From positions 10,878-74,877 of the forward strand of contig CBDUYN010000012.1 of assembly GCA_965371445.1 (NCBI GenBank): 64,000 nucleotides of DNA. The letters are read 5' to 3'. This document shows, one piece after another, positions 1 through 29,182 of this stretch. Within the stretch, counting starts at the first letter, position 1. Each line of letters starts with the position of its first letter. The notes beneath the pieces are model-generated. The model searched no databases and was not told the origin of the DNA. It saw only the letters and a list, made by a program, of their open reading frames with translations. The position numbers and the translations under genes are program-made. The DNA comes from an uncultured bacterium (GTDB taxonomy: Bacteria; Acidobacteriota; Thermoanaerobaculia; Multivoradales; J023).

Positions 1-123
1 CTGACCCTACCGGTCATCCAGGGGCGCATCGTCAAGGCGAAGCCGATCCTTCCGGACGTCTGTGTCGCCGAGGGTGAGCCCGAGGTCCGCGGCGACGCCC
101 TGAAGGCGATCAGGACGTGGACC

Positions 124-2049
124 ATGGCCTGCGATCCGGCGCAGCTGGTGGGCGCGCCGGTCGGCGTCCACGGCCTCCTCGGCACGACGCTGGGTGTGCT
201 CCTGACCGTCGAGACGTTGGATGGCCGGCGGCACGTTCAGCAACTCCGGGCGACCCAGGCGTTCTTCGTCATTCCGGCGCCGCCGACCCTCGTCGAGCTC
301 GCCTTGAGCGCCGGCCGTCACGGGGCCGAGCGATTGCTGCGTCGGCCGGAGCTGGCGCTCCTGCTGCTGGTGTCGTTGCTCCTGGGTATTCGTCGGCGGA
401 CGCTCCTGGCCGCGCTGGTCGCCTTCGCCGCCGCCCAGGGGCTGGGCCAGTGGCTGGCCGGGCAGGGCTGGATGGTGATGTCCGTCTTCCTGCCCCAGGT
501 CGCTGCCGCGGCCACGGCCTGGTTGGTCGGGGTGGAGCTCATGGAGCGCTCCGTGCTGCGGCCGGGCTGGTTGCGGCCAGGTTGGTTGAAGCCGCTGTCG
601 GTGCCGATGCTCGGGCTCGGGGTGCTCTACGGTGCCGCTCAACCGGAGACCGTGCCGACCCTGGGGCTCTCCACCGGAGAGCAGCGCCTGTCGTTGGTGC
701 TCTTTGCGGCCGGCGCGCTGGCGGGTCTGCTGCTGTTGACGCTCTGGGCGCGCCAGCTGCGGATGGTGCTCGTGGGCCTTTCTGACGACGCGCGGGAGCG
801 TTGGACCTTTCGTGTGGCGTACGTGTCCGTGGTGCTGGCGGGTGGTGTGTTTTTCTATCGGATGAGCGCGCCGTACTTCAGCGGCGCCGTCACCCCGGCC
901 GTGCCGATGGTCACTTTGGTCACCGCTGCGGCGCTCGGCCTCTGGTGTCGCCGCGACAGTGACATCCGCGACGGTGGCGCCACGGGTCTCGTCCTGGCGA
1001 TGGTCGCGGGCGCCTTCTGCGCCGCCGGGTTGACCGGGAGCTTTCACGTCGCCCTGCCTCTGGCCTCGCTGGCCGTTTACGGTCTGCTGGCGCTGCTCGG
1101 CGCCCGGCTGCTGGTCAAGAAGCGCTGGCCGCTGTGGCTCGCTCTCTTGTTCGTGGTGCTCACCGCGCTCTACCAGGGCTATCACGCCGGACAGATCCTG
1201 CGCCACGACACGACGCTGCCGGTCGCCAACGCCGCCGGCATGGGCGTGCTGCTCCTTGCCGTCTTTTTTGTCTGCTACCGGGCCATCCCGGCCAGCGACC
1301 TTGCCGGGCGGCCTTCGCTCAGGGTGCCCGGGCTTCTGGCGATGGCTCTCGCCGGGCTCTGGCAGCTGGCGGAGTATCGAGAGTGGGCGAGCGGGCCGGT
1401 GTCCGCGGACCTGGCGATGGGCCTGGCCCGCCTGCCGGTGCTAGCCATGATCCTGCTGCTCGGTGCCTGGCTGGCCTGGCCTCGTCGGCGGCGCTTCGTC
1501 GCGCCAGAGGCGCAGGCCGGGGCCGGCGCACCTGGAACCCACTGGGCCCTGCTCGGGCTGGCCTTTTTCGTGCTCCCCTTGGGCACCCTGCGCCTGGACA
1601 TCCCCTTCCATGCGCCGGGCGCGCCGAGCGCCGCCGAGGCCGGCCGGGTGATGGACACCCTGCTGACCGATACCTACCTGGCGTTCAACCTGGACGACGA
1701 GGACGCCGCCTTCGACCGCCTCGCCCAGAACCTCTCCCAGGACCTGGTGGCCGACGTCTACCTCGACAGCCGGCGGCGGCTGAGAGCGGGCACCCGGGAG
1801 GGAGCCGAGGTGACAGTCCGCGACGTCCGCGTCCTGGAGGTCGACGCCGCCGTCGCCACGGCCGACAATGCCTTCACCTACCCCTGTCAGTGGGTCGTCA
1901 CGGCACGGGTCAGGCACTTGCAGCACATCCACAACCGTCAGAACGTGTATGTCGGTGAGTTGACCATCCAGGTCGAGGACGACCGCTGGAAGATCGCCGG
2001 CCTCGACCTGTTGAGCGAAGAGCGCGTCGTGTTGTCGTGGAGGAGCTGA
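124..2049 (+). CDS. Polytopic inner-membrane protein of unknown function with a C-terminal soluble domain; the reading frame is open to the window start, so the true 5' end may lie upstream
   Basis: 641-aa ORF with at least 12 hydrophobic helical segments, followed by a ~150-aa hydrophilic C-terminal domain (DTLLTDTYLAFNLDDEDAAFDRLAQNL...). No stop codon in frame between nt 1 and 124. Its stop overlaps the start of the downstream ABC ATPase (ATGA at 2047-2051). Confidence 0.55.
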   Translation: MACDPAQLVGAPVGVHGLLGTTLGVLLTVETLDGRRHVQQLRATQAFFVIPAPPTLVELALSAGRHGAERLLRRPELALLLLVSLLLGIRRRTLLAALVAFAAAQGLGQWLAGQGWMVMSVFLPQVAAAATAWLVGVELMERSVLRPGWLRPGWLKPLSVPMLGLGVLYGAAQPETVPTLGLSTGEQRLSLVLFAAGALAGLLLLTLWARQLRMVLVGLSDDARERWTFRVAYVSVVLAGGVFFYRMSAPYFSGAVTPAVPMVTLVTAAALGLWCRRDSDIRDGGATGLVLAMVAGAFCAAGLTGSFHVALPLASLAVYGLLALLGARLLVKKRWPLWLALLFVVLTALYQGYHAGQILRHDTTLPVANAAGMGVLLLAVFFVCYRAIPASDLAGRPSLRVPGLLAMALAGLWQLAEYREWASGPVSADLAMGLARLPVLAMILLLGAWLAWPRRRRFVAPEAQAGAGAPGTHWALLGLAFFVLPLGTLRLDIPFHAPGAPSAAEAGRVMDTLLTDTYLAFNLDDEDAAFDRLAQNLSQDLVADVYLDSRRRLRAGTREGAEVTVRDVRVLEVDAAVATADNAFTYPCQWVVTARVRHLQHIHNRQNVYVGELTIQVEDDRWKIAGLDLLSEERVVLSWRS

Positions 2050-2760
2050 TGATCGCGGTTCGTGAGCTCGTCTTCGGCTATCCCTTCTCTTGTCCCCCTT
2101 CGAGGCTATTCCTCTCTTGTCCCCCTTCGGGGGAACCTGCACGACGGCTTCGCGCTGTCCGTAGGTGAGCTCAGGGTGTCCCGGGACGAGAGCGTCGCCG
2201 TGGTCGGTCCGAGTGGTTGCGGCAAGACCACGCTGTTGCACCTGCTGGCCGGCATCCTGTCTCCGGCGTCGGGCTCCGTGGTGGTCGACGGCGTCGAAGT
2301 TTCCAAGCTTGGGCGCGAGGACCGCCAGGACTTTCGAGCGCTCACCGTGGGCCTGGTCTTCCAGGAATTCGAGCTGCTCGACTACCTCGACGTCAACGAC
2401 AACGTTCTGCTGCCCTATCGAGTCAGCCCCGCGCTCCATCTGAACGGGGAAGCCCGGCAGCGCGCCGTGGAGCTGGTCGAGCAGGTGGGTCTCGCCGACA
2501 AGAAGAGCTCGTTTCCCCGGCAGCTGTCGCAGGGAGAGCGCCAGCGCGTGGCCGTGTGCCGTTCGCTGGTGACTCAGCCCAAGGTGCTGTTGGGCGACGA
2601 GCCGACCGCCAACCTCGACGCGGACAACCGCGACCTCGTCATGGACACCCTGCTGCGGTATTCCGAAGAGCAGCAGGCGCCGCTCTTGGTCGTCACCCAC
2701 GATCACGAGCTTCGTCGTCGTTTCGACACCGTGGTCGACGTGCGGGAGCTGGCGCCGTGA
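2049..2760 (+). pseudogene. ABC transporter ATP-binding protein (MacB/LolD-like), reading frame disrupted near its 5' end
   Basis: ATG at 2049 gives MIAVRELVFGYP, a typical ABC ATPase N-terminus. The frame then shifts, and the Walker A (VVGPSGCGKTT), ABC signature (LSQGERQRVAV) and Walker B (LLGDEPTANLD) motifs continue in the 2062..2760 frame. The shift coincides with a tandem duplication of ~21 bp with a 28-bp period (ctcttgtcccccttcg[a/g]gg twice) at about 2085-2136. Confidence 0.75.
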
Positions 2761-3444
2761 AGCACGTGATCTTCATGGCCTGGCGCTACCTGGCTTTCTA
2801 CTGGGGCAAGACCGCGGTGCTGGTGGCCTCCATCAGCCTGATCCTCTTCGTGCCGGCCGGGCTGCACGTGCTGGTCGAGCAGGGCGCCGACGTGCTGACG
2901 GCACGGGCCGAAGCGACCCCGCTTTTAATCGGCGCCAAGGGGAGCGCGGTCGACCTGACCTTGAGCGCTCTTTACTTTCGCCCGCCCACGTCGAGCCCAT
3001 GCCCTATCGCGAGGTGGCGCGGGTCGACGGCAGCTCCCTGGCGCGCGGCATCCCGCTCCACCTGCGCTTCGCGGTCGGCCGGCGGCGCATCGTCGGCACG
3101 ACGCTCGACTACGCCGAATTCCGCGCCCTTACGGTGGAGCGCGGCCGGTGGCTGGCCATGCTCGGTGAGTGCGTGCTGGGGAGCGAGGCATGTGCTGTCG
3201 TCGGCGGGCAGCGCCTTCGACGTCGCCGGCCATGACCACGGCGCTGGTCTTTGCCCTCTCCATCCGGGTGCGGCACCGCGAGATCGAGACGATCCAGAAG
3301 ATCGGTGGCGGTCGGCAGCGCCTGGCCACGATCCTCGGCGCCGAGATCCTTGTCGTGATTGTGGCCGCGGTCACGATCGCGGGAGTGCTCACCGCGATCG
3401 TGAGCCGGTTCGGAGAGCTGGCGGTGCGCCTTGTCGGCGGCTGA
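2757..3444 (+). pseudogene. FtsX-like ABC transporter permease, split over three reading frames and apparently truncated
   Basis: GTG or ATG start at 2757/2775 overlaps the ATPase stop. TM1 is MAWRYLAFYWGKTAVLVASISLILFVPAGL. The FtsX-domain segment (REIETIQKIGGGRQRLATILGAEILVVIVAAVTIAGVL) is found in the third frame (3169..3444). Frame changes occur near 2990 and 3230, and there is no fourth TM helix. Confidence 0.5.
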
Positions 3445-3453
3445 GGTGGAGGC

Positions 3454-4391
3454 ATGGAAATGAAGAAGCTGTTGGCACTTACCGCGATGTTGATGACGGC
3501 CGCAGGCTGCGCTGACGGGAAGAACGAAGCGACGGGGCCGGCGTCAGACGGCACCGAGAGACCTCTGGTCGTCACGACGAGCTACCCACTCAAGTACTTC
3601 GTCGAGCGCATCGCGGCCCCCATGGTCGATGTACGGTTCCTCGTGCCCGCGGACGAAGATCCTGCCTACTGGAGACCGGGCCCCGAAGACGTGCTGGCGA
3701 TGCAGAAGGCGGACCTCATCGTGACGAACGGCGCCTCCTACGAAGGATGGCTCAAGAACGTCTCCCTACCGCCGTCGCGGCTGGTGGACACCACCGACGG
3801 TCTTCGGGACTGGCTGATACCCCTGGAGAAGGAAACCACCCACAGTCACGGCCTGGAGGGTGAGCACGAGCACTCGGGGACGGCGTTCACCACCTGGCTC
3901 GACCTGACGCTGGCCGCCACCCAGGCCGGCGCCGTCAAGGATGCGCTGGCGGCGCGCTGGCCCCAGCACTCGAATCAGTTCCAGGCGCGTCTCTTCGAGC
4001 TCGCCCAGGAGCTGACGGCGCTGGATGCCGCGGCGCAGGAGGCTGTGGTCGGCCGTCTGAGCTGCCGCTGCTTTTCTCGCACCCGGTCTACCAGTACCTC
4101 GTCCACCGCTATCGCCTCAACGCCCGCAGCGTTCACTGGGAGCCTGACCGGATGCCGGATGAAGCAGAGTGGCAGGAGTTGCTCACGATCCTCGAAGATT
4201 TCCCGGCCGCGTGGATGATCTGGGAGAACACGCCGCTGCCGCAGGTCAGCGAGCGTCTCGAGTCCGTCGGCATCCGCTCCGTGGTCTTCGATCCCTGCGC
4301 CAACACCCCTGCGAGCGGAGACTTTCTGTCGATGATGGAAAAGAACGTGCAGGCGCTGCGCCAGGTCTTCGCGGCGGAGCCACCGCAATGA
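3454..4391 (+). pseudogene. Metal (Zn/Mn) ABC transporter substrate-binding lipoprotein, ZnuA/TroA family, single frameshift near nt 4050
   Basis: Lipoprotein signal (LALTAMLMTAAGC), the LIVTNGASYEGWL motif, and a His-rich metal loop (HSHGLEGEHEHSG). The native continuation (PLLFSHPVYQYLVHRYRLNARSVHWEPDRMPDEAEW...) is in the +1 frame and ends at 4391. Confidence 0.7.
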
Positions 4392-4447
4392 AAACCGATC
4401 GCCCCGTTTCAACTCAACCCCAAAATGAGTCACAAGGAGTCCCTACC

Positions 4448-5214
4448 ATGACGACACGCACTCTGTATCGATCCATCGTTTTTGCCTTCGCCCTGCTGGC
4501 GGTTCCGGCGTCGGTGACCGCGAGCGACTGGAGCTGGACGTTCACGCTCTATGGCTGGGCGAGCGACATCACCGTCGACGCCGAGGTCAACGACCAGGAG
4601 GTCATCGGCGGCGAGATCGACTTCTCGGACCTGATCGACGACCTCGACTTCGCCGCCATGATCCACCTCGAGGGCAAGCGGGACAAAATCGGCCTGTTCG
4701 CCGATCTCATCGTGACCGACTTCGGGGACGAGCCCCGCATCTTCGACCGCGACGGGCTGACGATCCAGGCCCAGTCGGACCTCGAGATGACGATCCTCGA
4801 GCTCGGTGGCGTCTGGTACCCGGGGGGCGGCGGCACCGGGTTCGGCGTGCACTACGGCGCGAGGCTGCTCGACGTCGACCAGGAGATCGACATCGTGGAG
4901 ATCGGCCCGTTCTCGCCCGATCGCCGGGTCGTCGACGTCAGCACGACCCTGGTCGACGGCCTCGTGGGCTTGCGCTACCTCTCGTCGTTCTCGGGCAACT
5001 GGTCGTTCGCGATCTGGGGCGACGTGGCGGCACCGAGCTCGGCTGGAGCTCGGCGGCCGTATTCGGCTACCACTTCGGCGCCCGGGACCAATTCGCCCTT
5101 CGCTTCGGTTACCGGCACCTGGCGATCGAGCTCGACGAGGAGGACGACCTTGCCGAGGTCGAGACCGAGGTCGCGATGACCGGCCCGGTGGTCGGCTTCT
5201 CCATCGGTTTCTGA
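4448..5214 (+). pseudogene. Outer-membrane beta-barrel protein, frameshift near nt 5035
   Basis: Signal peptide (MTTRTLYRSIVFAFALLAVPASVTA) and alternating amphipathic strands. The authentic C-terminus (YHFGARDQFALRFGYRHLAIELDEEDDLAEVETEVAMTGPVVGFSIGF-stop, terminal aromatic) is only read after a one-base frame change at about 5030-5040. Confidence 0.55.
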
Positions 5215-5230
5215 ACTTGAGGAGGTTGTC

Positions 5231-5569
5231 ATGAGTGGACTCGACATCTTTACCTGGATCGTGGTGCTGATCCTGGTGGCGACCGTGGGCATCGTCTTCG
5301 CCGTCCTGGGGATGATGCCTGGAAAGGTCGCCCGCCAGCGCCGGCACCCGCAGGTCGAGGCGATCCAAATCGCTTCCTGGCTTGCCCTGATCTTCGGATT
5401 CGCCCTTTGGCCGGTGGTCATGGTTTGGGCCTACGTGAAGCCGCTCGCCCGTCCGGTGGCGGCCGAAGTCAACGGCTCCGATGCGTCGGCCGCCGACGCA
5501 CGGATTACAGAGCTCGAAGCGCGAATCGCCGAGCTCGAGGCGGCGGCGGAAGGAGGGGCGGCATCATGA
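5231..5569 (+). CDS. DUF3302-like small membrane protein (YibI-like); this family is commonly paired with a HlyD protein
   Basis: 112 aa with two TM helices (IFTWIVVLILVATVGIVFAVL; IASWLALIFGFALWPVVMVWAYV). The stop overlaps the start of the downstream HlyD-like gene (ATGA). Confidence 0.55.
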   Translation: MSGLDIFTWIVVLILVATVGIVFAVLGMMPGKVARQRRHPQVEAIQIASWLALIFGFALWPVVMVWAYVKPLARPVAAEVNGSDASAADARITELEARIAELEAAAEGGAAS

Positions 5570-6125
5570 TCCTCGTCCTCACCCTCCTCTACATCGCCCC
5601 GCTGCTCCTCGCCTTCAAGCTCGGGATCTTGAAGCCGACCCTTTTCTGGAAGCTGTCGCCCTTGATCTGGATGGTGTTTCTGCTGATCACGCTCTTCATC
5701 CCGATGCAGTTCTGGGCGCCGTCGGGGCCGCTGATCGTCAGCCAGTACGGCGTGCAGATCGTGCCCAACGTCGCCGGCCAGGTGACCGAGGTCCCGGTCG
5801 AGCCCAACGTGCCGTTGGATGAAGGGGACGTGCTCTTTCGGATCGACCCCACGCCCTACCAGGCGGCCGTCGATCAGCTGTCGGCGCAGCTCAAGCTCAC
5901 CCGCACCCGGCTCGACCAGGCCCGGAGGCTGGCCGAACGCGGCGCCGGCTCGGGGTACGACGTCGAGCAGTACACCTCCCAGGTCGAGCAGCTCGAGGCG
6001 CAGCTCGATAACGCCGAGTACAACTTGGCGGAGACCACGGTGCGCGCGCCCGCCGCCGGTTTCGTGACCAATGTCGCGCTTCGACCCGGAGCGCGGGCGG
6101 TGAACTTCCCCTTCGCCCCGTCCGG
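5566..6125 (+). pseudogene. HlyD-family membrane-fusion protein, N-terminal ~185 aa only
   Basis: TM anchor (LLYIAPLLLAFKLGILKP), a lipoyl-like motif (QYGVQIVPNVAGQVTEVPVEPNVPLDEGDVLFRIDP) and a coiled coil (QLSAQLKLTRTRLDQARRLAERGAGSGYDVEQY...TTVRAPAAGFVTNV). The frame runs into nonsense after about nt 6110, and the beta-barrel / C-terminal half is absent. Confidence 0.6.
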
Positions 6126-7079
6126 GTGCGGGCCGGAGCACAGGCCGGCGAGGCGGCGCTCGAAGCCAGCGTCGCCGACTACGAGTACGCCCGCCAGTCG
6201 CTGGTGGCGACGATTGCCAAGACCTGGTTCCTGGCCACCGAAGCCCGGCTGCAGCGCGCCCTGATCGAGGAGGCGGTGGAGACCTTCCGCGAGATCCTCG
6301 AGGTCGTTGAGATCAAGCAGGAAGTCGGCCAGGTGACCCTCAAAGACGTCTCCCTGGCGCGCGCCGACCTGGCCTCGGCCGAGGAGGCCCTGCGTCAGGC
6401 GCAGAGCGCCTACGAGCAGGTCCAGCGCGGCCTCGAGGTGCTGCTCGGCCGCTATCCGGGCGCCGACCTCGAGGCGGCCGACGACCTCGCGGCGGTGCCG
6501 CCGCCGGTTCCCGTCGGTCTGCCGTCGGACATCGTCGCCCGGCGCCCCGACCTGCAGGCCGCCGAGCGCCGGGTGGCCGCCGCCTTTCTCCTGCAACAGC
6601 AGGCCGAGCTCGCCCGCCTGCCGAGCTTCAACCTCAACGCCGCCGGCGGCGTCGACTCGGGGCTCGACGACGCCATCGGCTCGCTCGCCGCCGGCGTCGT
6701 CGCCCCGATCTTCACCGGCGGCGCGCTGAAAGCCCAGATCGAGACCGCCACCGCCGACCAGCAAGCGGCCATCGCCGCCTACGGCCAGACCCTGCTCGTC
6801 GCCTTCCAAGAGGTCGAGACCGCACTCTCCAACGAAGGGTCCTTCGAGGAGCGCCAGCGCTTCCTCGAGCGCGTGGTCGCCGAGAACGAGAAGGCGCTCG
6901 AGATGGCGCGAGTGCAGTACGAGGTCGGCCAGATCGATCTCTTGAGCGTGCTCCAGCTCCAGCTCCAGGCCCGGGTGATCGGGGCCAGGACGTCGCTGAT
7001 CCGGGTGCGCAACGAGCGCCTGGCGCAGCGGGTCGATCTCCATCTGGCGCTGGGCGGGAGCTTCGAGGAGGGCGGATGA
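6126..7079 (+). pseudogene. TolC/OprM-family outer-membrane efflux protein, C-terminal half only (second repeat)
   Basis: 317 aa with typical OMF helical repeat motifs (ASVADYEYARQSLVATIAKTWF, DLASAEEALRQAQSAYEQ, LPSFNLNAAGG, YEVGQIDLLSVLQLQ). It begins abruptly where the HlyD fragment ends. No N-terminal signal peptide or first repeat is present. Confidence 0.6.
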
Positions 7080-7112
7080 TCCAACTGGCAAGAGCAACGA
7101 AGGAATCACGAA

Positions 7113-7491
7113 ATGAGATCAGATCACCAGGATGCAGCGCTCCGATCACGGCCAAGAGGCATGAGTCGGGTCCTTGCGGGTTTTTTGCTGCTCGCCCTGG
7201 CCACCGCCCCTGGATCAGGATGTCGACGGTCGGCAGCTCGAGCGACCTGCGCGGCTACACCCAGGGCCGCTTCCGCGACCTCGCGGCCGCGTGGGCCCTG
7301 GTCGAATACCGGCACATGACGGGCAAGAAGCTGTGGAAGCTCGGTCGGCAGGGGGTCGCGGTCTGGGGCGGCCTCGGCTTCATCGGCGAGGATTTCGGCG
7401 ATTTCAGCGGCCCCGGCGCAACCTGCGGTTGGACCTGGGTTGGGGCTACGACGAGATCGGCTTCTATCTCAACTTCACCGAGGCGTTTTGA
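7113..7491 (+). pseudogene. Remnant of an Omp85/ShlB-type outer-membrane transporter (signal peptide plus last beta-strands)
   Basis: ATG 7113 gives a signal peptide (MSRVLAGFLLLALATAPGSG). A second frame gives DLRGYTQGRFRDLAAAWALVEYRH...WGGLGFIGEDFGDFSG. A third frame gives RNLRLDLGWGYDEIGFYLNFTEAF-stop, the canonical terminal-Phe beta-barrel end. Three frames within 380 bp. Confidence 0.4.
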
Positions 7492-7567: not shown

Positions 7568-7906
7568 TCACTCGTCGTCGATCATGGCCCGCAGCCGGAC
7601 CAGCAGCTCAGGGAGCTCGTCATTCGCGGTCTTCCAGACGATGTCGTGATTGACGTCGAAGTAGGCGTGAATCAGACGGTTGCGCATCGACACGATGAGC
7701 GGCCACGGAATGTCCGGCGCCTCGTTTCGCGCCCCCTCGGAAAGCTGGCCCGCCGCCTCGCCGATGACCTCGATCGCGCGCACCAGTGCGAAGAGGAGCA
7801 TTCGGTCGGAGTCCAGATCCGCGCGCTGGCGGCCCGAAACGAACTCCAGCGCCGTCTCTGCCGCCTCGATCATGTGCAGCAGCCGGACTCGGTCCTCAGG
7901 CTGCAT
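7568..7906 (-). CDS. hepT: HepT-like toxin (DUF86, HEPN-fold) of a HepT/MntA toxin-antitoxin pair
   Basis: 112 aa with an R-x4-HAY-type HEPN motif ([16 protein letters not shown]). Its ATG overlaps the last codons of the upstream mntA gene. Confidence 0.8.
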
Positions 7907-8195
7907 ACTGCACCTCGGCCGAGCGAACCACCTCGGCTCGGAAGTGGCGGCTCAGATCTTGAGCGGTACGCAGGTCTACCTGGCGGCCGCCCAGCAAAGC
8001 CGTTAGCTCCGCCTCAATGGCCGCCAGTCCCAGCAGCCCGGGCGCCGCGCCAGGCTCAAACTCCACCAGCAGATCGACGTCACTGTCCGGCCGATCCTCG
8101 CCCTTCAGCACCGAGCCGAAGAGTGACAGCCGGCGGATCTGATGGCGCCGGCACAACTCAGCCAGGGCCTTCTGATCCACAGGGATTCTTTTCAT
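7896..8195 (-). CDS. mntA: MntA-like minimal nucleotidyltransferase antitoxin
   Basis: 99 aa with the pol-beta NTase motif [22 protein letters not shown]. Lies immediately upstream of hepT and overlaps it. Confidence 0.8.
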
Positions 8196-8351: not shown

Positions 8352-9233
8352 ATGAAGACGAAGATGGAGACCGCGGGGAGCGCCCGCACCCTGGAGCTCG
8401 AGAGCGCCGACGGCACGCGGCTCCACGCCTCGCTGTTCGAGGCCGCGGAGCCGGTGGCGGGTCTGGTGATGATGCACGGCATGCAGAGCCATGCCGGCTG
8501 GTTCGAGGCCGCGGGGACGGCGAACTCGCTGGCGGCGGCTGGGATCACCTGCCTGGCCTATGACCGCCGCGGCTCGGGGCGGAGCGGCGGGGCGGCCGGC
8601 CACGCCGCCCGCCCCGACGACATGCTCGCCGACCTCGACGCCGCCCGCTCGGGGCTGCGGCGCGAGCTCGAGCAGGCCGGGGTGGCCGAGGCGCCGATGC
8701 ACGCGCTCGCCAACTGCTTCGGCACCCGCATCGTGCTGCCCTATCTCGATCGCGAGCCGCGCGCCTTCGCCTCTCTGACCCTGACCGCGCCAGCGACCCA
8801 CATGAGCTCGCGGGCGGATTACGGCCTCGGCGAGCGCCTCAAGATCCTGCTCGCCCGCGGCGAGCGCACCTTCGCCACGCCGCTCCAGGACGAGTATTTC
8901 ATCTCCGAGGGACGGTGGCTGGAGTGGATCCGGAGCGACGCCCACTCCCTTCGGCAGGTGACCGCCGCTTTCCTCAAGAGCGCCGCGGTCCTCACCGCCC
9001 GCATGAAGACCGCCGCGCGCCGGCTGGAGGTGCCGCTCCTGGTGGTGCTGGGCACTCGCGACCTGATGGTCAGGAACGACGCCATCCGGCGGCAGCTCGT
9101 CGCCCGCTACCGTGGGACGGTGCGGGTGGTCGAGGTCGACGCCGAGCACTACGTCGACTTCACCGAGCACCAGCCCACCCTGGCGGCGGAGGTGCAGGCA
9201 TGGGTCCTGGCCTACTCCGGAGATCGACGATGA
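8352..9233 (+). CDS. Alpha/beta-hydrolase (lysophospholipase / monoacylglycerol-lipase-like, Hydrolase_4 type)
   Basis: 293 aa with LVMMHGMQSHAGWFE, ITCLAYDRRGSGRSGG, and a catalytic-His region near the C-terminus. The stop overlaps the next gene's ATG. Confidence 0.7.
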   Translation: MKTKMETAGSARTLELESADGTRLHASLFEAAEPVAGLVMMHGMQSHAGWFEAAGTANSLAAAGITCLAYDRRGSGRSGGAAGHAARPDDMLADLDAARSGLRRELEQAGVAEAPMHALANCFGTRIVLPYLDREPRAFASLTLTAPATHMSSRADYGLGERLKILLARGERTFATPLQDEYFISEGRWLEWIRSDAHSLRQVTAAFLKSAAVLTARMKTAARRLEVPLLVVLGTRDLMVRNDAIRRQLVARYRGTVRVVEVDAEHYVDFTEHQPTLAAEVQAWVLAYSGDRR

Positions 9234-11242
9234 CCGCCTCCGTCGAACGCTTCGAGCTGTCGGCGGTCGACCTGCCGTTCCGGGTGTCGTTCAAGCACTC
9301 CGCCGCCGAGCGACGGCGCTCGGAGAGTCTTTTCCTCAAGTGCGTCACCGACGGCGGCCCCTTCGGGGGGACGGGTTTCGGCGAGAGCCTGCCGCGGGAA
9401 TACGTCACCGGCGAGAGCCGCGACGGCGCCTTCGAGCTGCTTGCCGAACGCGTCCTGCCGCGGCTCGCCGGCCGCTCCTTCGCCGGCCTCGCCGAGGTCG
9501 AGACCTTCCTCGGCGAGTGCGACGGCCGCGCGCCGGCGGATTGGGTCGACCCCTCGACCCCCCAGGGCGCCCGCATGAGCGCCGCTCCCTTCGAGAAAGC
9601 GACCCGCGACCCGACGGCCGCCCAGGAGGCCCTGCTGCGGCGGATGATGGCGAACAACCGCGACACCGAGTACGGCCGCGAGCACGGCTTCGCCGCGGTC
9701 CGCTCCCTCGACGACTACCGGTCGCGGGTGCCGGTGGTCGACTACGAGGACATCCGCGGGCACATCGACAGGATGACCCGGGGCGAGAAGGGGGTGCTGA
9801 CCGACGAGGACCCTGTGCTCTTTGCCCAGACCTCGGGCACCACCGGGACGCCGAAGTACATCCCGGTCACCCCCACTTGCCAGCTAGGCGGCGGCATGAC
9901 CACCTGGCTGCACTACGCCCGCCGCGATCATCCGGGCATGTTCCGCGACAAGATCGTCACCATCGTCTCGCCGGCGATCGAGGGCCATACCGAGGGCGGG
10001 CTGCCCTTCGGCTCGACCAGCGGCATGGTGGTCAAGGAGATGCCGAAGATCGTGCAGTCGGCCTACGCCGTGCCCTACGACGTCTACGAGATCCACGACT
10101 ACGAGGCCAAGTACTATGCCCTGCTGCGGCTCGGCCTCGGTCGCAGCGTCAGCTTCATCGGCACCGCCAACCCGTCCTCGATCCTCAAGCTGGCGGAGAT
10201 GGCCGACGCGAATGGCGAGCGCTTGATCCGCGACCTGCGCGACGGCACCCTGAGCGACGAGGTCGAGATCCAGTCCGAGGTGCGGCGGGTGATCGAGGGA
10301 ATGATCCGCCCCGATCCTGGGCGCGCTGGCGAGCTTGAGGCGATGCGCGGGCGCCGCGACGGCAAGCTGCTGCCCGCCGACTACTGGCCGCACATGGCGC
10401 TGCTCGGCTGCTGGAAGGGCGGCACGGTCGGCGCCTACGTCGACAAGCTGGGCGCCTGGTACGACCCGAACCAGCAGGGCATGGTGCCGGTGCGCGACAT
10501 GGGCTACCTGGCGTCCGAGGCGCGGATGTCGATTCCGGTGTCGGACGACGGCGCCGGCGGGGTGCTGACCATCCACCTCAACGTCTTCGAGTTCGTGCCG
10601 GTGGAAGAGGTCGACGACCGGCCCGACGAGCCCGGGAGCTGGAGCTTCCTGGGCGCCACCGAGCTCGAGATCGGCCGCGACTATTACGTTTTCGTCACCA
10701 CCACCGGCGGTCTCTACCGCTACGACATGAACGACGTCGTCGAGAGGGTCGACACCTACAACGCCACCCCGGTGATCGTCTTCCGCCGCAAGGGCCGGGG
10801 AATGACCAACCTCACCGGCGAGAAGCTGTCGGTCAACCAGGTGATCGCGGCGATGGGAAAGGCCGGCGAGGCAGTGGGTGTGGGCGTCGGCCACTTCCGC
10901 GCCGAGCCCGATGTTTCCCGCTCGCTCTACGTCTTCAAGGTGGAATTCGAGAGCGCGCTACCGGCGGAGAAGCGCTTCGACTTCCTGGGCCGGCTCGACG
11001 AGTCCCTTGGCGAGCTCAACATCGAGTACCAGGCCAAGCGCGCCAGCGGCCGGCTCGGACCGCCGGTCCTGCAGGTGATGCGGAGCGGCTGGTACGAGCG
11101 CGGCAAGCAGAGCCTGGTCGCCGAGGGCAAGCGCCTGTTCCAGGCCAAGACCGTGCTCCTCGACGCCAAGAGCGGCTACCGCCCGGAGCCGGACGAGCTC
11201 GAGGCGGAGGTAGGCCTGGTGAAAGGTCGTGGAGTACAATGA
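9230..11242 (+). CDS. GH3-family acyl-acid amido synthetase / adenylating enzyme with an N-terminal ~110-aa enolase-superfamily (MR/MLE N-terminal capping domain)-like extension
   Basis: GH3 core starts around residue 115 (NNRDTEYGREHGF...VPVVDYEDIRGHIDRMTRGE...FAQTSGTTGTPKYIPVT...). The N-terminal 110 aa (FELSAVDLPFRVSFKHSAAERRRSESLFLKCVTDGGPFGGTGFGESLPREYVTGES...LPRLAGRSF) matches the MR_MLE_N pattern (PL..PF, tDgG..G.GE, tGEs, P.L.G). No stop separates the two parts. Confidence 0.7.
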   Translation: MTASVERFELSAVDLPFRVSFKHSAAERRRSESLFLKCVTDGGPFGGTGFGESLPREYVTGESRDGAFELLAERVLPRLAGRSFAGLAEVETFLGECDGRAPADWVDPSTPQGARMSAAPFEKATRDPTAAQEALLRRMMANNRDTEYGREHGFAAVRSLDDYRSRVPVVDYEDIRGHIDRMTRGEKGVLTDEDPVLFAQTSGTTGTPKYIPVTPTCQLGGGMTTWLHYARRDHPGMFRDKIVTIVSPAIEGHTEGGLPFGSTSGMVVKEMPKIVQSAYAVPYDVYEIHDYEAKYYALLRLGLGRSVSFIGTANPSSILKLAEMADANGERLIRDLRDGTLSDEVEIQSEVRRVIEGMIRPDPGRAGELEAMRGRRDGKLLPADYWPHMALLGCWKGGTVGAYVDKLGAWYDPNQQGMVPVRDMGYLASEARMSIPVSDDGAGGVLTIHLNVFEFVPVEEVDDRPDEPGSWSFLGATELEIGRDYYVFVTTTGGLYRYDMNDVVERVDTYNATPVIVFRRKGRGMTNLTGEKLSVNQVIAAMGKAGEAVGVGVGHFRAEPDVSRSLYVFKVEFESALPAEKRFDFLGRLDESLGELNIEYQAKRASGRLGPPVLQVMRSGWYERGKQSLVAEGKRLFQAKTVLLDAKSGYRPEPDELEAEVGLVKGRGVQ

Positions 11243-11346: not shown

Positions 11347-11874
11347 ATGAAGAAAACGACATGCTTGTTCCTCCTCCTCGCCCTGCTGTGTGTGGCGAGC
11401 TCGTTTGCCGGGATCTCAGTGGATCACGACAAGAACGCCGACTTCTCGAAGTACAAGACCTTCACCATCAGGGAAGCGACGCCGGCGATCAATCCGCTGA
11501 TGCGCGAGCGGCTCGTCAAGGCGATCGAGGAGGGCCTCACGGCGGAGGGTCTCACGAAGGCCGACGACGGAGCGCACCTCGAGGTCGTCATCCACACCTC
11601 GCTCGAAAAGGAGATGCACATCACGGCCGACGACTGGGGCTACGGCGGCTATCGCGGCTGGCGCGGTTGGGGCGGCTGGGGTACGACGACCGTCGACGTC
11701 CAGAACGTCGCCGTGGGCACCCTGATGCTCGACATGGTCGAAACCGCTTCGGACAAGCTGGTGTGGCGCGGCATCGCGACCGACTCGATCCCCAAGAAGA
11801 GCGAGAAGCTCGAGAAGAAGGTCTACAAGGCCGTCGACAAGCTCTTCCGGCATTTTCCGCCGGAGGCGGAATGA
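11347..11874 (+). CDS. DUF4136-family secreted lipoprotein, copy 1 of 3
   Basis: Signal/lipobox (MKKTTCLFLLLALLCVASSFAG), family N-terminal signature (VDHDKNADFSKYKTFTI), RBS aaggag upstream. Paralogues at 53743..54222 (-) and 56107..56670 (+). Confidence 0.6.
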   Translation: MKKTTCLFLLLALLCVASSFAGISVDHDKNADFSKYKTFTIREATPAINPLMRERLVKAIEEGLTAEGLTKADDGAHLEVVIHTSLEKEMHITADDWGYGGYRGWRGWGGWGTTTVDVQNVAVGTLMLDMVETASDKLVWRGIATDSIPKKSEKLEKKVYKAVDKLFRHFPPEAE

Positions 11875-11950
11875 AGAGACACTGCCGCCGGAGGCGGAAT
11901 GAAGAGACACTGCCGCCGGAGGCGGAATGAAGAGACACTGCCGCCGGAGG
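11857..11950. repeat. Tandem direct repeat, 28-bp unit, 3 perfect copies plus one degenerate copy
   Basis: ccgccggaggcggaatgaagagacactg at 11857-11884, 11885-11912 and 11913-11940. A truncated fourth copy (ccgccggagg-aatgacgag) follows. Copy 1 contains the stop codon of the DUF4136 gene (PPEAE-stop), so the repeat reiterates the gene's 3' end into the intergenic region before the RBS of the next gene. Confidence 0.9.
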
Positions 11951-16553: not shown

Positions 16554-19500
16554 CTACGGACGTCCTTCAGCCTGGATCATGCCATCGTGCTCAATGCGTC
16601 GTCGCCTCTGCTCCGCTCTGCGGATCTCGATCTGGGCACGTTCACGGCCGTGGCGAATCATTTCCTGCCAGCCAGGATCGGCGTCAGCCGGACAGTCGAG
16701 CGATGCGAAGGCTTCGTCCCATTGTCGCCAGTAATCCTCCCCGGTGCCTCTCCAGACATGGCCCTCGGAGTACGCAGCTCCCGCTACCTCCTGGGGTCTG
16801 AAGTCTCCACGAAGAGCGAGCTTCGCCAAGCCCGCCCAACTCGCTTCAGGGAGCCCCTGTAGCGGCGAGAGATGAAACTCTTTCAAATCCACTCGACGTA
16901 AGAGCCGGCGGTAAAGCTCCGCCTCGCGGCCGATCAATTGTGGCAAATAGCGGGTGAGCCTCGAGTTGGCCGCGAGGTCCGCAAGCAAGGTTTTCCTTCG
17001 CTCAGATCCGAGGAGTCCGATCACCAACTTAGCCGCCTGCCCGAGCTCTGGCGCCATCTGCGAGGTCTTGAGACCGAGTTGCGCAAGCCATTCGCAGGAG
17101 AGCTCCGGATCGGCACCCAGGAGCTCCATGAGCTGGTAAGAAGCTACGCGATTCGGTGACTCGATTTCCGTACTACGCAAAACGGCTTGCCGCCAAAGCT
17201 CTCCAAGCTCGGGACGGACCTCACCTTTGGGATCCGTCATCCATTCACCAAATGCCATGGCCAGAGCAAGCGCTGGGTCGGGATGAGCGAGAACCGCCTT
17301 CGCCACGGACATCGAGAGCTCACCACGAAGCCCCATTCCCTTGATGACGGAGGGATCGTCGGCGGCTCTCTTGAGAGCTGCTTTCAGCAGGTCTGGCGAG
17401 GGCTCTGGAAGGCGAAGAGCCGAACGTATCCCTACTTCAGCGTACGCTTCGTCGCGCAGGCAAAAGCGTACGCGATCGGCAAAGCTCGGCGACGTGCTGA
17501 GCCGGTCAAGGAACGGTGCAAGCCATAGGCTCGGTACGTTCTTTTCGGTCAGCACCTCGAACCAGAGATCCGGCTCCCGCGCTCTGACCGCCAGCATTCG
17601 ACAAACGTCAGAAACGTTGCTGAAATACCCGTCGGTGATACTCTTCGCCTCTTGGGTAAGATGGAGAAGAGTCTCGACGACCTCAGCAGGGCTCGCGTCA
17701 GCCCATTCGCCAGCCAGCGCCTCAAGCGCCGACGATTCACTCGTCAAGCACTCCGAAATTGGCGGAAAGAGGATCTCGAATCGTGGATCGGGATCCAGAG
17801 GGAGCTCGACGTCCAGTCGATCCGCCAGGCGTGCCAGAGCGGCCGAAAGGCCGATTCGGCCAGCGGCCAGCGGCGTCAGATCTCGCAACATCTCGATGAC
17901 GACCTGTTGAACGAATCGTCCCTCGTCTTCCGAGACTTTTCCCCGTGAATCGGAAAATTCGAGCCAATCCCAGAGCTCGTCACACAGTTCGGGAAATGAG
18001 ACGACTCCGGTGATTCTGAAGAGCTCGAGGGCGTCTTTCCAGACTCCACCCATTTGCTCCAGTTGAGCCTGTGGCAAGGGGCCGCGCCGGGTGGTCAGGC
18101 CGGTTCGCGTTGGATCGACGTAATCACCGTATACGCTCGGTGCCAGAGTGAGACACCCGAGGCGAAAAGCGATGGCGAAAGCTTCGGTGGATTCCGCAGC
18201 CTCCGCATGTCTGCGAGCCGCCCGAATCGCCGTATGTCGACGCTCGAGCGTCTCGCCCACAGGCTCGCAGATCCACCTCCGGAGGATATCCAGTTGAGGA
18301 CAAGCTTGGGTGGACTCCTGGCTTCGGGACGATTCAGCCTGTTCGAGCAACCTCTGAATCGTAGCTCCCGGTGTCGCGTGCAGACCCGATCGGGCGATGT
18401 CGACGAGCTCGCCCGGATAGTGCTTGAATGCCCAAAGAGCTTCCCGCTCCCCCAATCCCGCGAAGGTCCCCCAGGCCGCGCTCGCTTCCTTGCGGAGGGG
18501 GTACTTCGCCGGATCGAGCCGTCCGAGGAGCCGACACAACTCTTCGAACGGGATCCGAGCACCTCGCGCGGCGGCGGCGGCGATTTCACGGACAGCACAA
18601 TCGTAGCCGGGCGCCAAGTCCAGGTAATCGCGGTAACCCAAGCCGGTCCCCTTGTGACCGAAGAAAACCGAGGAGAGCAGGACCGAACGCAAGGCCCGAG
18701 GTTGGACCGCCAGGCAATCTCCGCCGGCTTCGGACAAGACGCCTGCCGCGGTCAGCGAAACGACGCGTTTCCGCGTCTCGAGCGGGCGGAGGTCGAGCTT
18801 CTTCCCGACTTCCTTCATCGGCATCCCACGTCGGCCACCGAGGCTGAAAACGGCGAGGAGCCCCTCTTCGTCGCGTCCTACCAGCCGACGGACGCTCCGC
18901 AAGGAGTCTCTTGTGAGAGCCTCGCCACGGAGCACCGAGAACCAGTCGCCCTCAAGCCACAACGCGGCCAGGGTCGCCGCCAGGCCCGGCTTGTTGGACG
19001 CCTGATCCACGAGCTCCAGGAGGTACTCGTCCGGTGCTTCGACACCGAGCTCCTCAAGGATCTGCTGAATCTTCCGACGAGGCAAAAGCTCAAGCGTACG
19101 AATCCTCGCTGTTGGCACGTTCAGAGCGCTGGCTACGTGGTCCCGGTGGCCTCTCCAGGTGGTTGCCACAATGGAGAACGTAGCGCCGATTCGCTGACGC
19201 AGCCCCGCCAGTCTCTCCAGCCGGGCCGGGTCGGCGTGGGCGTCATCGACAATGATCACCTCGGGCTTCTGGTCTCGGATCGCATTGGCGATCTCCTCCT
19301 CTTCCTCAGAGGCCAGGAAGAGCCCCCAACCGTCTAAAGCTAGCCGATAGAGGAGATAAGACTTGCCCGCGCCGGGCTCGCCGACCAGAATTCGGTCCTT
19401 CGAGGTGGAACGTAACCACTCGGCGTCCGCCTCCCGGCCCAGAAGCTCCGTCTCGACGAGCGGACGGCTCAGGCTTGGTGGCAAGACGGAAAGGGCCGCG

Positions 19501-19949
19501 GGTTTACCGGAAAGGTCGAGAAGATCCTGGCACCACCGGGAATTTCGATAGAGCAAAGCGGCCATCATCCGCTGCTCATAGATCTGAACGAGCGTGACCT
19601 CCAGCTCTCTGGCCCGTTCTCGGAGCTTTCGACGTTGCGGCGGTGTCAGAACGCGGCTGGTGGCTACGATGACCTTGCGGCACTCTCCTCCTGTTCGGCG
19701 GTGGCTTTCGAGGCTACGCGTCAGGTTGGCTTTGACTTGCTTCTGGGTGGTGCAGACCAAGAGTGTACCGTCGGCGACAACACCGTCCATGCCGCCGTCG
19801 TTTCCACCTGGCATCGAAACCAGGGTTGGGTAGAATTTCCGAAGAAGGTCGCCCGCACAGGCCTCAAAGAGATCGCCGTCGAGCTGGTCGCCGTCGAGCC
19901 TGGGGCTCAGCGCTTCGCGGATCTGACGGTAGAAGGGGTCTTTCACCAA
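16554..19949 (-). CDS. 1131-aa three-part protein: N-terminal Mrr-like PD-(D/E)xK nuclease domain, STAND/NB-ARC-like P-loop NTPase, and a long alpha-helical C-terminal region (Avs/NLR-like architecture)
   Basis: N-terminus SMPGGNDGGMDGVVADGTLLVCTTQKQVK fits the Mrr_cat D..D...Q.K pattern. Walker A ILVGEPGAGKSYLL, Walker B PEVIIVDDAHAD, sensor-1-like FSIVATTWRG (NB-ARC hhhTTR). About 750 aa of helical repeats follow. The region looks lower in GC than its flanks. Confidence 0.7.
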   Translation of the reverse strand: MVKDPFYRQIREALSPRLDGDQLDGDLFEACAGDLLRKFYPTLVSMPGGNDGGMDGVVADGTLLVCTTQKQVKANLTRSLESHRRTGGECRKVIVATSRVLTPPQRRKLRERARELEVTLVQIYEQRMMAALLYRNSRWCQDLLDLSGKPAALSVLPPSLSRPLVETELLGREADAEWLRSTSKDRILVGEPGAGKSYLLYRLALDGWGLFLASEEEEEIANAIRDQKPEVIIVDDAHADPARLERLAGLRQRIGATFSIVATTWRGHRDHVASALNVPTARIRTLELLPRRKIQQILEELGVEAPDEYLLELVDQASNKPGLAATLAALWLEGDWFSVLRGEALTRDSLRSVRRLVGRDEEGLLAVFSLGGRRGMPMKEVGKKLDLRPLETRKRVVSLTAAGVLSEAGGDCLAVQPRALRSVLLSSVFFGHKGTGLGYRDYLDLAPGYDCAVREIAAAAARGARIPFEELCRLLGRLDPAKYPLRKEASAAWGTFAGLGEREALWAFKHYPGELVDIARSGLHATPGATIQRLLEQAESSRSQESTQACPQLDILRRWICEPVGETLERRHTAIRAARRHAEAAESTEAFAIAFRLGCLTLAPSVYGDYVDPTRTGLTTRRGPLPQAQLEQMGGVWKDALELFRITGVVSFPELCDELWDWLEFSDSRGKVSEDEGRFVQQVVIEMLRDLTPLAAGRIGLSAALARLADRLDVELPLDPDPRFEILFPPISECLTSESSALEALAGEWADASPAEVVETLLHLTQEAKSITDGYFSNVSDVCRMLAVRAREPDLWFEVLTEKNVPSLWLAPFLDRLSTSPSFADRVRFCLRDEAYAEVGIRSALRLPEPSPDLLKAALKRAADDPSVIKGMGLRGELSMSVAKAVLAHPDPALALAMAFGEWMTDPKGEVRPELGELWRQAVLRSTEIESPNRVASYQLMELLGADPELSCEWLAQLGLKTSQMAPELGQAAKLVIGLLGSERRKTLLADLAANSRLTRYLPQLIGREAELYRRLLRRVDLKEFHLSPLQGLPEASWAGLAKLALRGDFRPQEVAGAAYSEGHVWRGTGEDYWRQWDEAFASLDCPADADPGWQEMIRHGRERAQIEIRRAEQRRRRIEHDGMIQAEGRP

Positions 19950-28247: not shown

Positions 28248-28431
28248 ACGGAGAAACAGTCACCCACCACCACGGAGCAAGAGCCATGAGCAGCACGAAC
28301 GGCGCATGCAGGCGACCCGCATGCAGAACGCTTTGGAGCTCGTCGAGAAGATGACCGAGCAAAGCGTCCCCGAGGAGCTCGTGGTAGACTAGACGAACCG
28401 TATCGTCAGACGGCATCCTCCAGGAGAAGTC

Positions 28432-28776
28432 ATGATCGAGTCACCGACACCCAAAACAGCCCCCGAAGGTGTCCCTCTGTCGTCGGATCTCGACGATCCC
28501 GAAGCCTTTCCGTGCTTCCTTTGTGACGATCCGATGACCAACCGCGGGCTTCGAGAGCGGCTGCGGACAGCCTCGCCTCCCGAGAGGACCCGCCTCCTGG
28601 CCAAGATCCTGCGCGAGGCGCGCGACACCGACGTCTGGAAGTACACCACTCCTGATGCGGTCGCAGAGGCCTGGTTGGCTCTCTCGCTCCATCTGGGCCG
28701 CCGGCGTGCGTTCTGGGAGTTCCTGCTGAGCTCCTGGGCCAGTCAAGGACGGATCCACTTTGAACCGGCTCGATAG
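28432..28776 (+). CDS. Hypothetical 114-aa protein upstream of, and overlapping, the AbiEii-like NTase fragment (possible antitoxin-like partner)
   Basis: ORF only. Stop at 28774-28776 overlaps the TTG/ATG of the next ORF. No motif recognised. Confidence 0.3.
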   Translation: MIESPTPKTAPEGVPLSSDLDDPEAFPCFLCDDPMTNRGLRERLRTASPPERTRLLAKILREARDTDVWKYTTPDAVAEAWLALSLHLGRRRAFWEFLLSSWASQGRIHFEPAR

Positions 28777-29182
28777 CCTCCAACAGGAGGTGCTCCGCGC
28801 TTTTTTCGAGTACGAAAGCCGCTTCTTCCTGACCGGTGGCGCCGCTCTGGCCGGTTTCCACCTTCAGCACCGGACGACCAAAGACCTGGAGCTCTTCACG
28901 GTCGAAGACCGGATCGATGAGGGCGCTGCCGCGTTAGCCGCCATCGCGCAGGATCTCGGCGGGTCCCTTGAGAGCCTGGTCGTCTACGTGGATTTTCGCC
29001 GCTATCTCTTACGGCGAGGCTCAAGCTCGGTGGTCGTTGAGCGCGCTTCATCGCCCTTCCTGGCTTACCCTGAGGGCGGACCCGCCTGGGGAGCCGGCGC
29101 GCCGCGCTCGCCTGTGCGCCCCCCGCGCTGGTGGGGATCTCGACCAGCGGGTACACTGGATCCGTATACTCCGTCGAAGTAG
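28760..29182 (+). pseudogene. AbiEii/AbiGii-family (DUF1814-like) nucleotidyltransferase, N-terminal fragment only
   Basis: N-terminus SLQQEVLRAFFEYESRFFLTGGAALAGFHLQHRTTKDLELF matches the family hallmark (F.LkGGTAL....R.S.DlDf). After ~90 aa the sequence degenerates, and the next gene (ankyrin protein) begins at 29217. The expected full length would be ~250-300 aa. Confidence 0.45.

Follow-up and report, generated by a model that had tools for sequence, protein, structure and literature searches.

The window, by which we mean the whole 64-kb stretch of DNA that was analysed, contains two neighbouring gene clusters within its first 7.5 kb, both on the plus strand. The first is a putative metal-transport set, consisting of a large membrane protein, a LolD-like ATPase, a MacB/FtsX-type permease, a ZnuA-family lipoprotein, and a small outer-membrane β-barrel. 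The second consists of DUF3302, an HlyD adaptor, a NodT-TolC channel, and a small Omp85 gene. Intact orthologues lie at the same genomic position in the loci L005, L006, and L087–L091 (ABC/ZnuA/barrel cluster) and L007–L032 (DUF3302-HlyD-OMF, where OMF is the outer-membrane factor), including L030, in which an Omp85 gene follows HlyD, and the gene order is conserved across several of these related contigs.

By alignment to these intact orthologous loci on related metagenomic contigs, we mapped nine lesions in seven genes between positions 2049 and 7491 (hereafter called the “tract”). The reference contigs for the ABC part are ~88% identical to the window in nucleotide sequence, and the base-level calls were made against L005 and L006 for the ABC genes and against L017 and L013 for the HlyD/OMF gap. 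Eight of the lesions are deletions of 1–850 bp, against one insertion of 55 bp. Six are at least 32 bp long, all within unique sequence, and the remaining three are single-base deletions, each located at a short run of C or G. In all seven affected genes, the frameshift or truncation takes away a substantial part of the protein. An earlier sequence-only reading of this DNA had named the same seven genes as disrupted, and the alignments bear out the breaks where it placed them. The comparison with orthologous loci that it had proposed as a check finds the genes intact in relatives. Its description of the seven genes as strictly consecutive does not hold, as the DUF3302 gene (5231–5569) lies intact between them.

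The first cluster is headed by a large polytopic membrane protein (1–2049), whose gene is cut off in its 5′ part by the window edge and is otherwise intact. A single frame matches residues 42–712 of the L005 protein with 80% identity, and the relatives of this protein (~712 residues) match HupE_UreJ. This gene served as our internal control. Its closest relative is found in L001, a locus that lacks the ABC genes downstream and was thus unusable as a reference. The stop codon of the membrane protein gene overlaps the start of the LolD-like ABC ATPase pseudogene (2049–2760; Pfam ABC_tran), with the ATG at 2049. The ATPase loses its frame after codon 12, through a 55-bp insertion (2081–2135) that consists of a 27/28-bp unit in imperfect tandem duplicate, both units opening with a copy of the local GGCTAYCC. 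This insertion is absent from both L005 and L006, and TRF reports the repeat at 2076–2129 (period 27, 2.0 copies, 92% matching), confirming the tandem duplication proposed earlier. When the 55 bp are taken out, a 216-residue ORF is regained, and from 2131 onward the ATPase has 87% amino-acid identity to that of L006. The insertion motif has no other copy in the window or in 86 related loci, and its DNA fold does not beat that of shuffled sequence (z = −0.5).

The MacB_PCD/FtsX-type permease pseudogene (2757–3444) corresponds to a protein of 393 residues in the relatives, and the MacB_PCD match was found on the permease orthologue of L006. DNA alignment to L005/L006 and tblastn place three deletions in the gene: 1 bp after 2986, 32 bp after 3188, and 461 bp after 3228. 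The pieces of the permease accordingly fall in frames 0, 2, 0, and 1. The frame changes described by the sequence-only reading are thus present, but the 493 missing bases, with which a membrane segment and a large part of the periplasmic domain are lost, had been overlooked. At the junction of the 461-bp deletion, CGGC is the sole shared sequence.

In the ZnuA-family lipoprotein pseudogene (3460–4391), the Pfam ZnuA match is split over two frames. The DNA alignment to L005/L006 assigns this to the single frameshift that had been suspected, a 1-bp deletion after 4056; relative to the L006 protein, residues 1–203 are read in frame 1 and residues 198–309 in frame 0. The small outer-membrane β-barrel pseudogene (4448–5214) follows, and it likewise carries the one frameshift expected from the sequence (−1 mod 3, near 5028). 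The homologues of the barrel (256–260 residues) span 99–100% of the frame-corrected 255-residue protein, whereas the uncorrected product, P0121, spans 76%. A barrel gene comes after ZnuA in L087–L089. A 280-residue gene behind ZnuA in L006, tried as a further barrel homologue, was rejected as not homologous.

The second cluster begins with the intact gene for the small membrane protein DUF3302 (Pfam DUF3302, positions 1–73 of 77), which adjoins HlyD in 13 related loci. Next, the HlyD/RND-type periplasmic adaptor (5566–6122) is an N-terminal fragment that keeps residues 1 to ~186 of ~313, as judged by NCBIfam RND_mfp (positions 23–154 of 322) and the L017 alignment. It directly abuts the C-terminal two thirds of a NodT/TolC-type OMF (6123–7079; TIGR01845, positions 143–459 of 460), which is 77% identical to the L017 protein, starting at L017 residue 173. 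As compared with L017 and L013, the join near 6122 is one deletion of ~845–860 bp that fuses the two halves, and this explains the abutment noted in the sequence-only reading. The deletion takes the C-terminal 40% of the adaptor together with the N-terminal third of the OMF, including its signal sequence. The HlyD part is read in frame 1 and the OMF part in frame 0; the ORF in the HlyD frame ends 47 codons past the junction.

The last gene of the tract is the remnant of an Omp85-family barrel (7161–7491), originally of ~400 residues, identified by alignments to P0168 (408 residues, E 2e-19) and to an ORF of L030. The L030 ORF sits after HlyD and matches Pfam Omp85 (E 5e-13), so that an Omp85 barrel accompanies DUF3302, the adaptor, and the OMF in one of the related loci. 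In the window, the gene is reduced to a signal peptide and its last part, as had been proposed: the signal peptide is in frame 0, residues 297–367 are in frame 2 (7199–7410), and residues ~383–408 are in frame 1 (to 7488). Two deletions, one of ~750 bp near 7200 and one of ~46 bp near 7408, separate these pieces, and ~250 residues of the barrel are lost. The fragments were identified by homologue and PDB sequence searches; Pfam and NCBIfam searches with the isolated pieces of the permease, the barrel, the Omp85 remnant, and the MR/MLE fragment described below gave nothing significant, and the PDB search with the Omp85 remnant gave chance matches only.

Downstream of the tract, the minus strand carries an intact HepT toxin (7568–7906; Pfam HepT-like, E 1e-23) and an intact MntA-type nucleotidyltransferase antitoxin (7896–8195; Pfam NTP_transf_2, E 1e-11). 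Further genes in the window are truncated, at 9230–9574, 28742–28990, 34935–35333, and 50009–50920. The first of these, on the plus strand, is an enolase-superfamily (MR/MLE) N-terminal capping domain (PDB 2p88 residues 6–86 of 369, E 2e-4; 1jpm, E 5e-4). It lacks the barrel domain and continues in frame into a GH3 gene (to 11242), the GH3 domains of which start at residue 226 of the joint ORF. Over the whole 64 kb, our count of indel lesions comes to at least 13, almost all of them deletions, in ~11 of ~60 genes. Frame switches at 11–13 kb, 54–56 kb, and 62 kb were considered as lesions and rejected, as they are normal borders between small genes. Tandem repeats occur twice in the window, once with a 27-bp and once with a 28-bp period. 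The 28-bp repeat (11857–11950) was rejected as a gene-breaker, since it starts 18 bp before a stop codon and runs into the intergenic spacer.

The tract is nevertheless the densest patch, with nine lesions in 5.4 kb versus four detected in the remaining 58.6 kb, where the survey was less sensitive. At the outside rate, ~0.37 lesions would be expected in 5.4 kb (Poisson P ~1e-10 by our own arithmetic, with the same lower sensitivity outside). The earlier view of a localised decay therefore holds for the density, but not for the damage as such, given the four truncated genes elsewhere in the window.

How do the two clusters compare with known transport systems? The first resembles the MacB/LolCDE-type (type VII) ABC systems, as its ATPase is LolD-like (TIGR02211, E 7e-52, below the curated cutoff) and the ancestral permease combines the periplasmic core domain of MacB with a C-terminal FtsX region. 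By sequence match, the intact orthologues (393 residues with MacB_PCD) belong to the MacB/Lol type VII class, and the window copy consists of fragments. Unlike these systems, the partners in the relatives are a ZnuA-family lipoprotein, the ~712-residue membrane protein, and a small outer-membrane barrel, rather than a MacA adaptor or a Lol chaperone, and the window copy is inactivated. The binding protein recalls ZnuABC and cluster A-I, matching Pfam ZnuA (E 1e-28) and, below their cutoffs, the AdcA/MntC/AztC models of NCBIfam. However, a ZnuB-type (ABC-3) permease was not seen in the cluster; next to the binding protein lies a MacB/FtsX-type permease. We rejected an assignment as a ZnuABC-type importer, given a MacB_PCD/FtsX permease and an ATPase nearest to the LolD/FtsE models. 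The second cluster resembles DUF3302-HlyD pairs with a NodT-family OMF, the 13 related loci all having, in this order, DUF3302, an adaptor of ~313 residues, and an OMF of ~490 residues. Such DUF3302-HlyD pairs are of the E. coli YiaW/YiaV kind. In contrast to the intact loci, the ~850-bp deletion spans both the adaptor and the OMF here.

We further investigated whether substitutions in the affected genes reflect a loss of constraint. For the ABC genes, we ran a four-taxon test (the window, L006, and L005, with L088 as the outgroup) that counts lineage-private amino-acid changes; the window has 42 against 17 in its sister L006 (binomial p = 0.0015), while the intact upstream gene, as a control, has 27 against 29 (Fisher p = 0.014). 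The ratio of non-synonymous to synonymous changes in the window (42/30) is not significantly above those of L006 (17/22) or L005 (44/40) (p = 0.17–0.30). Moreover, ZnuA has one deviation at 72 near-invariant columns, which is the median of 106 homologues, and with many outgroups its private changes are not in excess. We do not claim strong relaxed selection, because these two ZnuA tests gave no excess; relaxed selection on the affected genes is suggestive only. The searches yielded no conspecific genome in which an allele is intact, the best non-self matches being 75–80% identical.

The best reading of the two clusters, as far as the sequence goes, is a known phenomenon, bacterial pseudogenisation: the clusters are conserved and intact in relatives and are probably pseudogenes in this genome. 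We propose that selection on both clusters was lost, and that mutations would then have built up neutrally, with the usual bacterial deletion bias, until the lesions were fixed in a living population. Each of the seven genes would thereby be left without a working protein product. The decay would be recent, because GC3 (0.84–0.96) and amino-acid conservation have not yet deteriorated and ~1.5% of extra divergence has accumulated. Deletion bias is the pattern documented in bacterial pseudogenes (PMC6054270). No lesion was found in DUF3302, HepT, MntA, the neighbouring hydrolase, or the upstream membrane gene.

The tract has much in common with the deletion-biased pseudogene tracts of Salmonella, Sodalis, Mycobacterium leprae, and plant-symbiotic Burkholderia: operons hit by several independent, inactivating lesions, deletions far outnumbering insertions, short frameshifts that fall on nucleotide runs, larger deletions with microhomology that is slight or absent, a still recognisable codon signature, and a toxin-antitoxin pair that is kept. 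It differs from them in belonging to an uncultured Acidobacteriota-like (Thermoanaerobaculia-related) lineage with no sign of host restriction, and in its weak substitution-level signal of relaxed selection.

Between a pseudogenised island and an error-prone stretch, the two options that the sequence-only reading had left standing, we favour genuine pseudogenes as the best reading, because six of the nine lesions exceed the size of consensus errors and because the broken products recur in Logan. That the lesions are errors from poor coverage or from an error-prone part of a metagenome-assembled genome, the true genes being intact, is decidedly improbable. The source is indeed a metagenome-derived contig (100,166 bp) of an uncultured genome, and the excess of private changes in the ABC genes is ~3:1 non-synonymous to synonymous, as random errors would yield; the undegraded conserved columns of ZnuA also fit intact genes. 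The three single-base lesions, all −1 at short C/G runs, are what such errors would produce, but the homopolymer check suggested earlier does not discriminate, because real slippage and sequencing error both favour such runs. Errors of this kind do not account for six indels of 32–850 bp in unique sequence. A misjoin in a de Bruijn graph requires a repeat of k-mer length, and the junctions readable at the base level against close relatives show no repeat long enough. In addition, the genes lying between the broken ones are clean, and outside the tract, over 58 kb, the GC3 frame analysis turned up no candidate for a single-base frameshift. Exact lesion-spanning products are listed under NCBI, ENA, and Logan (by the label in the “sources” field, with one contig reported per product), namely the 78-residue ORF at 2999–3235, ZnuA (252 residues), the barrel (243 residues), the HlyD fusion (232 residues), and the OMF (291 residues); the ATPase product on record (194 residues) begins downstream of the 55-bp insertion. 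In Logan, the raw reads of every SRA run are assembled on their own, and 31-mers that occur a single time are dropped (PMC12424806). The products across lesions 3–7 thus recur in a collection in which each 31-mer needs at least two sightings, and the Logan label is not a blanket one, as two other truncated products—the sulfatase and DUF748 fragments—do not carry it.

The molecules may instead be real without representing a viable genome, as in a minority defective subpopulation or in library-preparation chimeras, with an intact dominant allele; we consider this improbable. One example of such a chimera is template switching in whole-genome amplification. The unusually large number of co-linear deletions for 64 kb, the little or no microhomology at the junctions (e.g., CGGC), the pair of tandem repeats, and the absence of the sulfatase and DUF748 fragments from Logan would all fit this explanation. 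However, amplification chimeras are mostly inverted, whereas every join here is same-strand and co-linear, and the Logan filter implies that the junction k-mers were seen repeatedly. Furthermore, a 5.8-billion-protein collection including Logan yielded no intact, near-identical allele of ZnuA or the barrel, and chimeras leave the extra substitutions in the same genes unexplained. That the rearrangements are functional, through programmed frameshifting or as new fusion proteins (an HlyD-OMF chimera or an MR/MLE-GH3 fusion), is barely conceivable. The MR/MLE fragment is in frame with GH3, and the gap in the sulfatase gene is also in frame, but the frame change at the HlyD/OMF junction soon leads to a stop, the permease has lost a membrane segment and a large part of its periplasmic domain, the Omp85 gene is without ~250 residues of its barrel, and the logic of slippery sites is inapplicable to such large deletions.

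The damage looks like ordinary gene decay, and not like a sequencing error; it is no new kind of biology. Whether the lesion load extends over the genome is a separate matter: a free-living, sediment-type Acidobacteriota lineage in early, deletion-driven genome erosion, with the 2–7.5 kb tract as its densest patch, seems unlikely, and a population bottleneck, a lifestyle shift, or a defect in double-strand-break repair would be possible causes. The window-wide lesion load suggests either unusually many pseudogenes or a genome quality that calls for a read-level check before comparative use. For annotation, the seven ORF sets should be treated as pseudogenes, and not as zinc/ABC uptake or efflux systems in metabolic reconstruction. 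The intact orthologous cluster of a ZnuA-type lipoprotein and a MacB-type permease, to our knowledge uncharacterised, may be worth a study of its own. The locus itself would provide a clean, base-resolved case of deletion-biased decay in a little-studied phylum.

The window has a G+C content of about 68%, and its very strong third-position GC makes the coding frames readable from composition. The closest public relatives of its first gene are Thermoanaerobaculia/Acidobacteriota metagenome-assembled genomes. As references for the ABC part, we used intact orthologous loci on the JGI contigs L006 (~88% nucleotide identity) and L005, and then on L087–L091. Their common gene order is Rotamase_2, a ~712-aa membrane protein (matching HupE_UreJ in L090 and L091), an ABC ATPase (216–222 aa), a MacB_PCD/FtsX permease (393 aa), and a ZnuA-family lipoprotein (307–321 aa), and in L087–L089 a gene for a 239-aa outer-membrane β-barrel comes after the ZnuA gene. 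For the efflux part, DUF3302, an adaptor of ~313 aa, and a NodT/TolC-type outer-membrane factor (OMF) of ~490 aa are common to 13 metagenomic loci, and the related locus L030 has a 374-aa Omp85-domain protein after the adaptor.

Scoring against these intact relatives maps nine lesions, and the disruption of seven genes within 2049–7491, as claimed in the sequence-only reading, is thereby borne out. The ATPase gene starts with the ATG at 2049, which overlaps the upstream stop, and carries a 55-bp insertion at about 2081–2135. The relatives read FGYPHGGF, whereas the window reads FGYP, the 55 bp, and then HDGF. The insertion consists of two imperfect 27/28-bp tandem units, and its removal regains the 216-aa ORF. 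The permease gene lacks 1 bp after 2986, 32 bp after 3188, and 461 bp after 3228, and these three lesions combined produce the frame order 0, 2, 0, 1; the sole shared sequence flanking the 461-bp gap in L006 is CGGC. The ZnuA-like gene misses one base after 4056, at a site that is a run of CCC or CCCC in the relatives. The barrel gene (4448–5214) has lost 1 bp (mod 3) near 5028, and the corrected protein is 99–100% covered by 256–260-aa homologues. A barrel homologue from another metagenome, P0153 (JGI, 249 aa, on a 19,345-bp contig), matches the first half only and then diverges; it looks like a second, independently frameshifted copy.

In the efflux part, a deletion of about 850 bp (gap of 845–860 bp) after 6122 joins the adaptor HlyD, which stops at about residue 186, to the OMF, which picks up in a different frame at NodT-profile position 143 of 460. 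The Omp85-like gene has lost about 750 bp near 7200 and about 46 bp near 7408, and the remnant retains the signal peptide, residues 297–367 (frame 2), and about 383–408 (frame 1) of the 408-aa Omp85-family homologue P0168. The neighbouring DUF3302, HepT, MntA-type nucleotidyltransferase, and alpha/beta hydrolase genes are unbroken, and so is the upstream membrane gene as far as it lies in the window.

Are these lesions real? A genuine pseudogenised island and a low-coverage or error-prone stretch had both been proposed, and the lesion type and the recurrence in Logan favour the former. Six of the nine lesions are at least 32 bp long, co-linear, and on the same strand, and no repeat that could cause an assembler misjoin was found at the junctions readable at base level. 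The three single-base lesions all lie at short C or G runs, a position that does not discriminate between pseudogene and sequence error. The frameshifted ZnuA product of the window (P0001, 252 aa, 100% identical, on a 100,166-bp contig) is recorded in NCBI, ENA, and Logan, and the lesions thus belong to the public record. In Logan, each SRA run is assembled alone from raw reads, singleton 31-mers are discarded, and contigs are built by Minia3 (PMC12424806). Besides this ZnuA product, the exact lesion-spanning barrel (243 aa), HlyD-frame fusion (232 aa), and OMF (291 aa) products carry the Logan label in addition to NCBI/ENA, as does the 78-aa ORF at 2999–3235, which runs across the −32 and −461 junctions. 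The ATPase record is a 194-aa form beginning downstream of the 55-bp insertion. The label is not a blanket one, since the sulfatase and DUF748 fragments described below do not carry it. With one contig listed per product, this recurrence is good but indirect support for real lesions, and we consider it probable that they exist in the sampled population.

The decay had also been described as localised, which holds in part: the long genes named as intact are open, but truncated genes also occur elsewhere in the window. By composition, the window contains no other single-base frameshift candidates. At 9230–11242, an MR/MLE (enolase-superfamily) N-terminal capping domain (9230–9574; PDB 2p88, E 2e-4) continues without a change of frame into a complete GH3-family gene, which indicates that a deletion of ~800 bp took out the barrel domain; the 670-aa product is labelled Logan and NCBI/ENA. 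At 28393–29182, an antitoxin-like ORF comes before a fragment of an AbiEii toxin (28742–28990, profile positions 4–72 of 238 only), and the coding signal ends near 28990. A 132-aa ORF at 34935–35333 is the N-terminal fragment (positions 8–98 of 1037) of a DUF748/YhdP-type protein; such proteins have ~1000–1200 aa, the remainder of the gene is missing, and the product is recorded in NCBI/ENA without Logan. Finally, a sulfatase paralogue at 50009–50920 (− strand), adjoining three full-length sulfatase genes, lacks ~190 internal residues, as it matches residues 21–224 and 421–482 of an intact relative in a single frame. Since its 303-aa product lacks the Logan label, this gap may reflect paralogue-driven misassembly.

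Two other features of the window are a repeat and a compositional outlier. At 11857–11950, 3.4 copies of a 28-bp unit (CCGCCGGAGGCGGAATGAAGAGACACTG) form a perfect tandem repeat that begins 18 bp before the stop of a DUF4136-like lipoprotein gene (11348–11874) and extends into the spacer, breaking no gene; its period is near the 27/28 bp of the tandem units inserted in the ATPase gene. The 1131-aa STAND-type gene (16554–19949, − strand) has a third-position GC of ~0.71–0.76, as compared to ~0.87–0.93 in its neighbours, which hints at a foreign origin.

We compared substitutions across 747 aligned codons of the three ABC genes in a four-taxon test, taking L088 as the outgroup to an ingroup of the window, L006, and L005. 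The private amino-acid/synonymous changes numbered 42/30 in the window, 17/22 in L006, and 44/40 in L005, against 27/20, 29/22, and 32/30, respectively, in the intact upstream gene used as a control. The window significantly exceeds L006 in amino-acid changes (p = 0.0015; p = 0.014 relative to the control gene), while the nonsynonymous/synonymous contrast among lineages in the ABC genes is not significant (p = 0.17–0.30). ZnuA alone showed no excess at 72 near-invariant columns, nor with 56 outgroups. We read these data as roughly neutral extra divergence of ~1–1.5%; this is consistent with, but does not prove, a recent decay in which roughly one indel arose for every six or seven substitutions.

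What was the ancestral ABC cluster? ZnuABC was ruled out, because the permease is of the MacB/FtsX type; the cluster conserved in L005, L006, and L087–L091 (orthologues of window 1–5214) thereby differs from the ZnuB-type architecture. It unites a ZnuA-family lipoprotein, a MacB_PCD/FtsX (type VII) permease, a LolD-like ATPase, and often a small outer-membrane barrel, and it persists down to 58% ZnuA identity. To our knowledge, this cluster, with its ZnuA lipoprotein and MacB-type permease, is uncharacterised. In L005, a ~160-bp insertion of G/C-rich palindromic repeats (CCCTCTCC...GGGGAGAGGG) lies between the ATPase and permease genes (6545–6710); small repeat elements evidently invade the ABC operon in this lineage.

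The nine-lesion tract matches bacterial pseudogene decay with deletion bias, a pattern described in PMC6054270. We file the decay of 2049–7491 as another instance of this known phenomenon.
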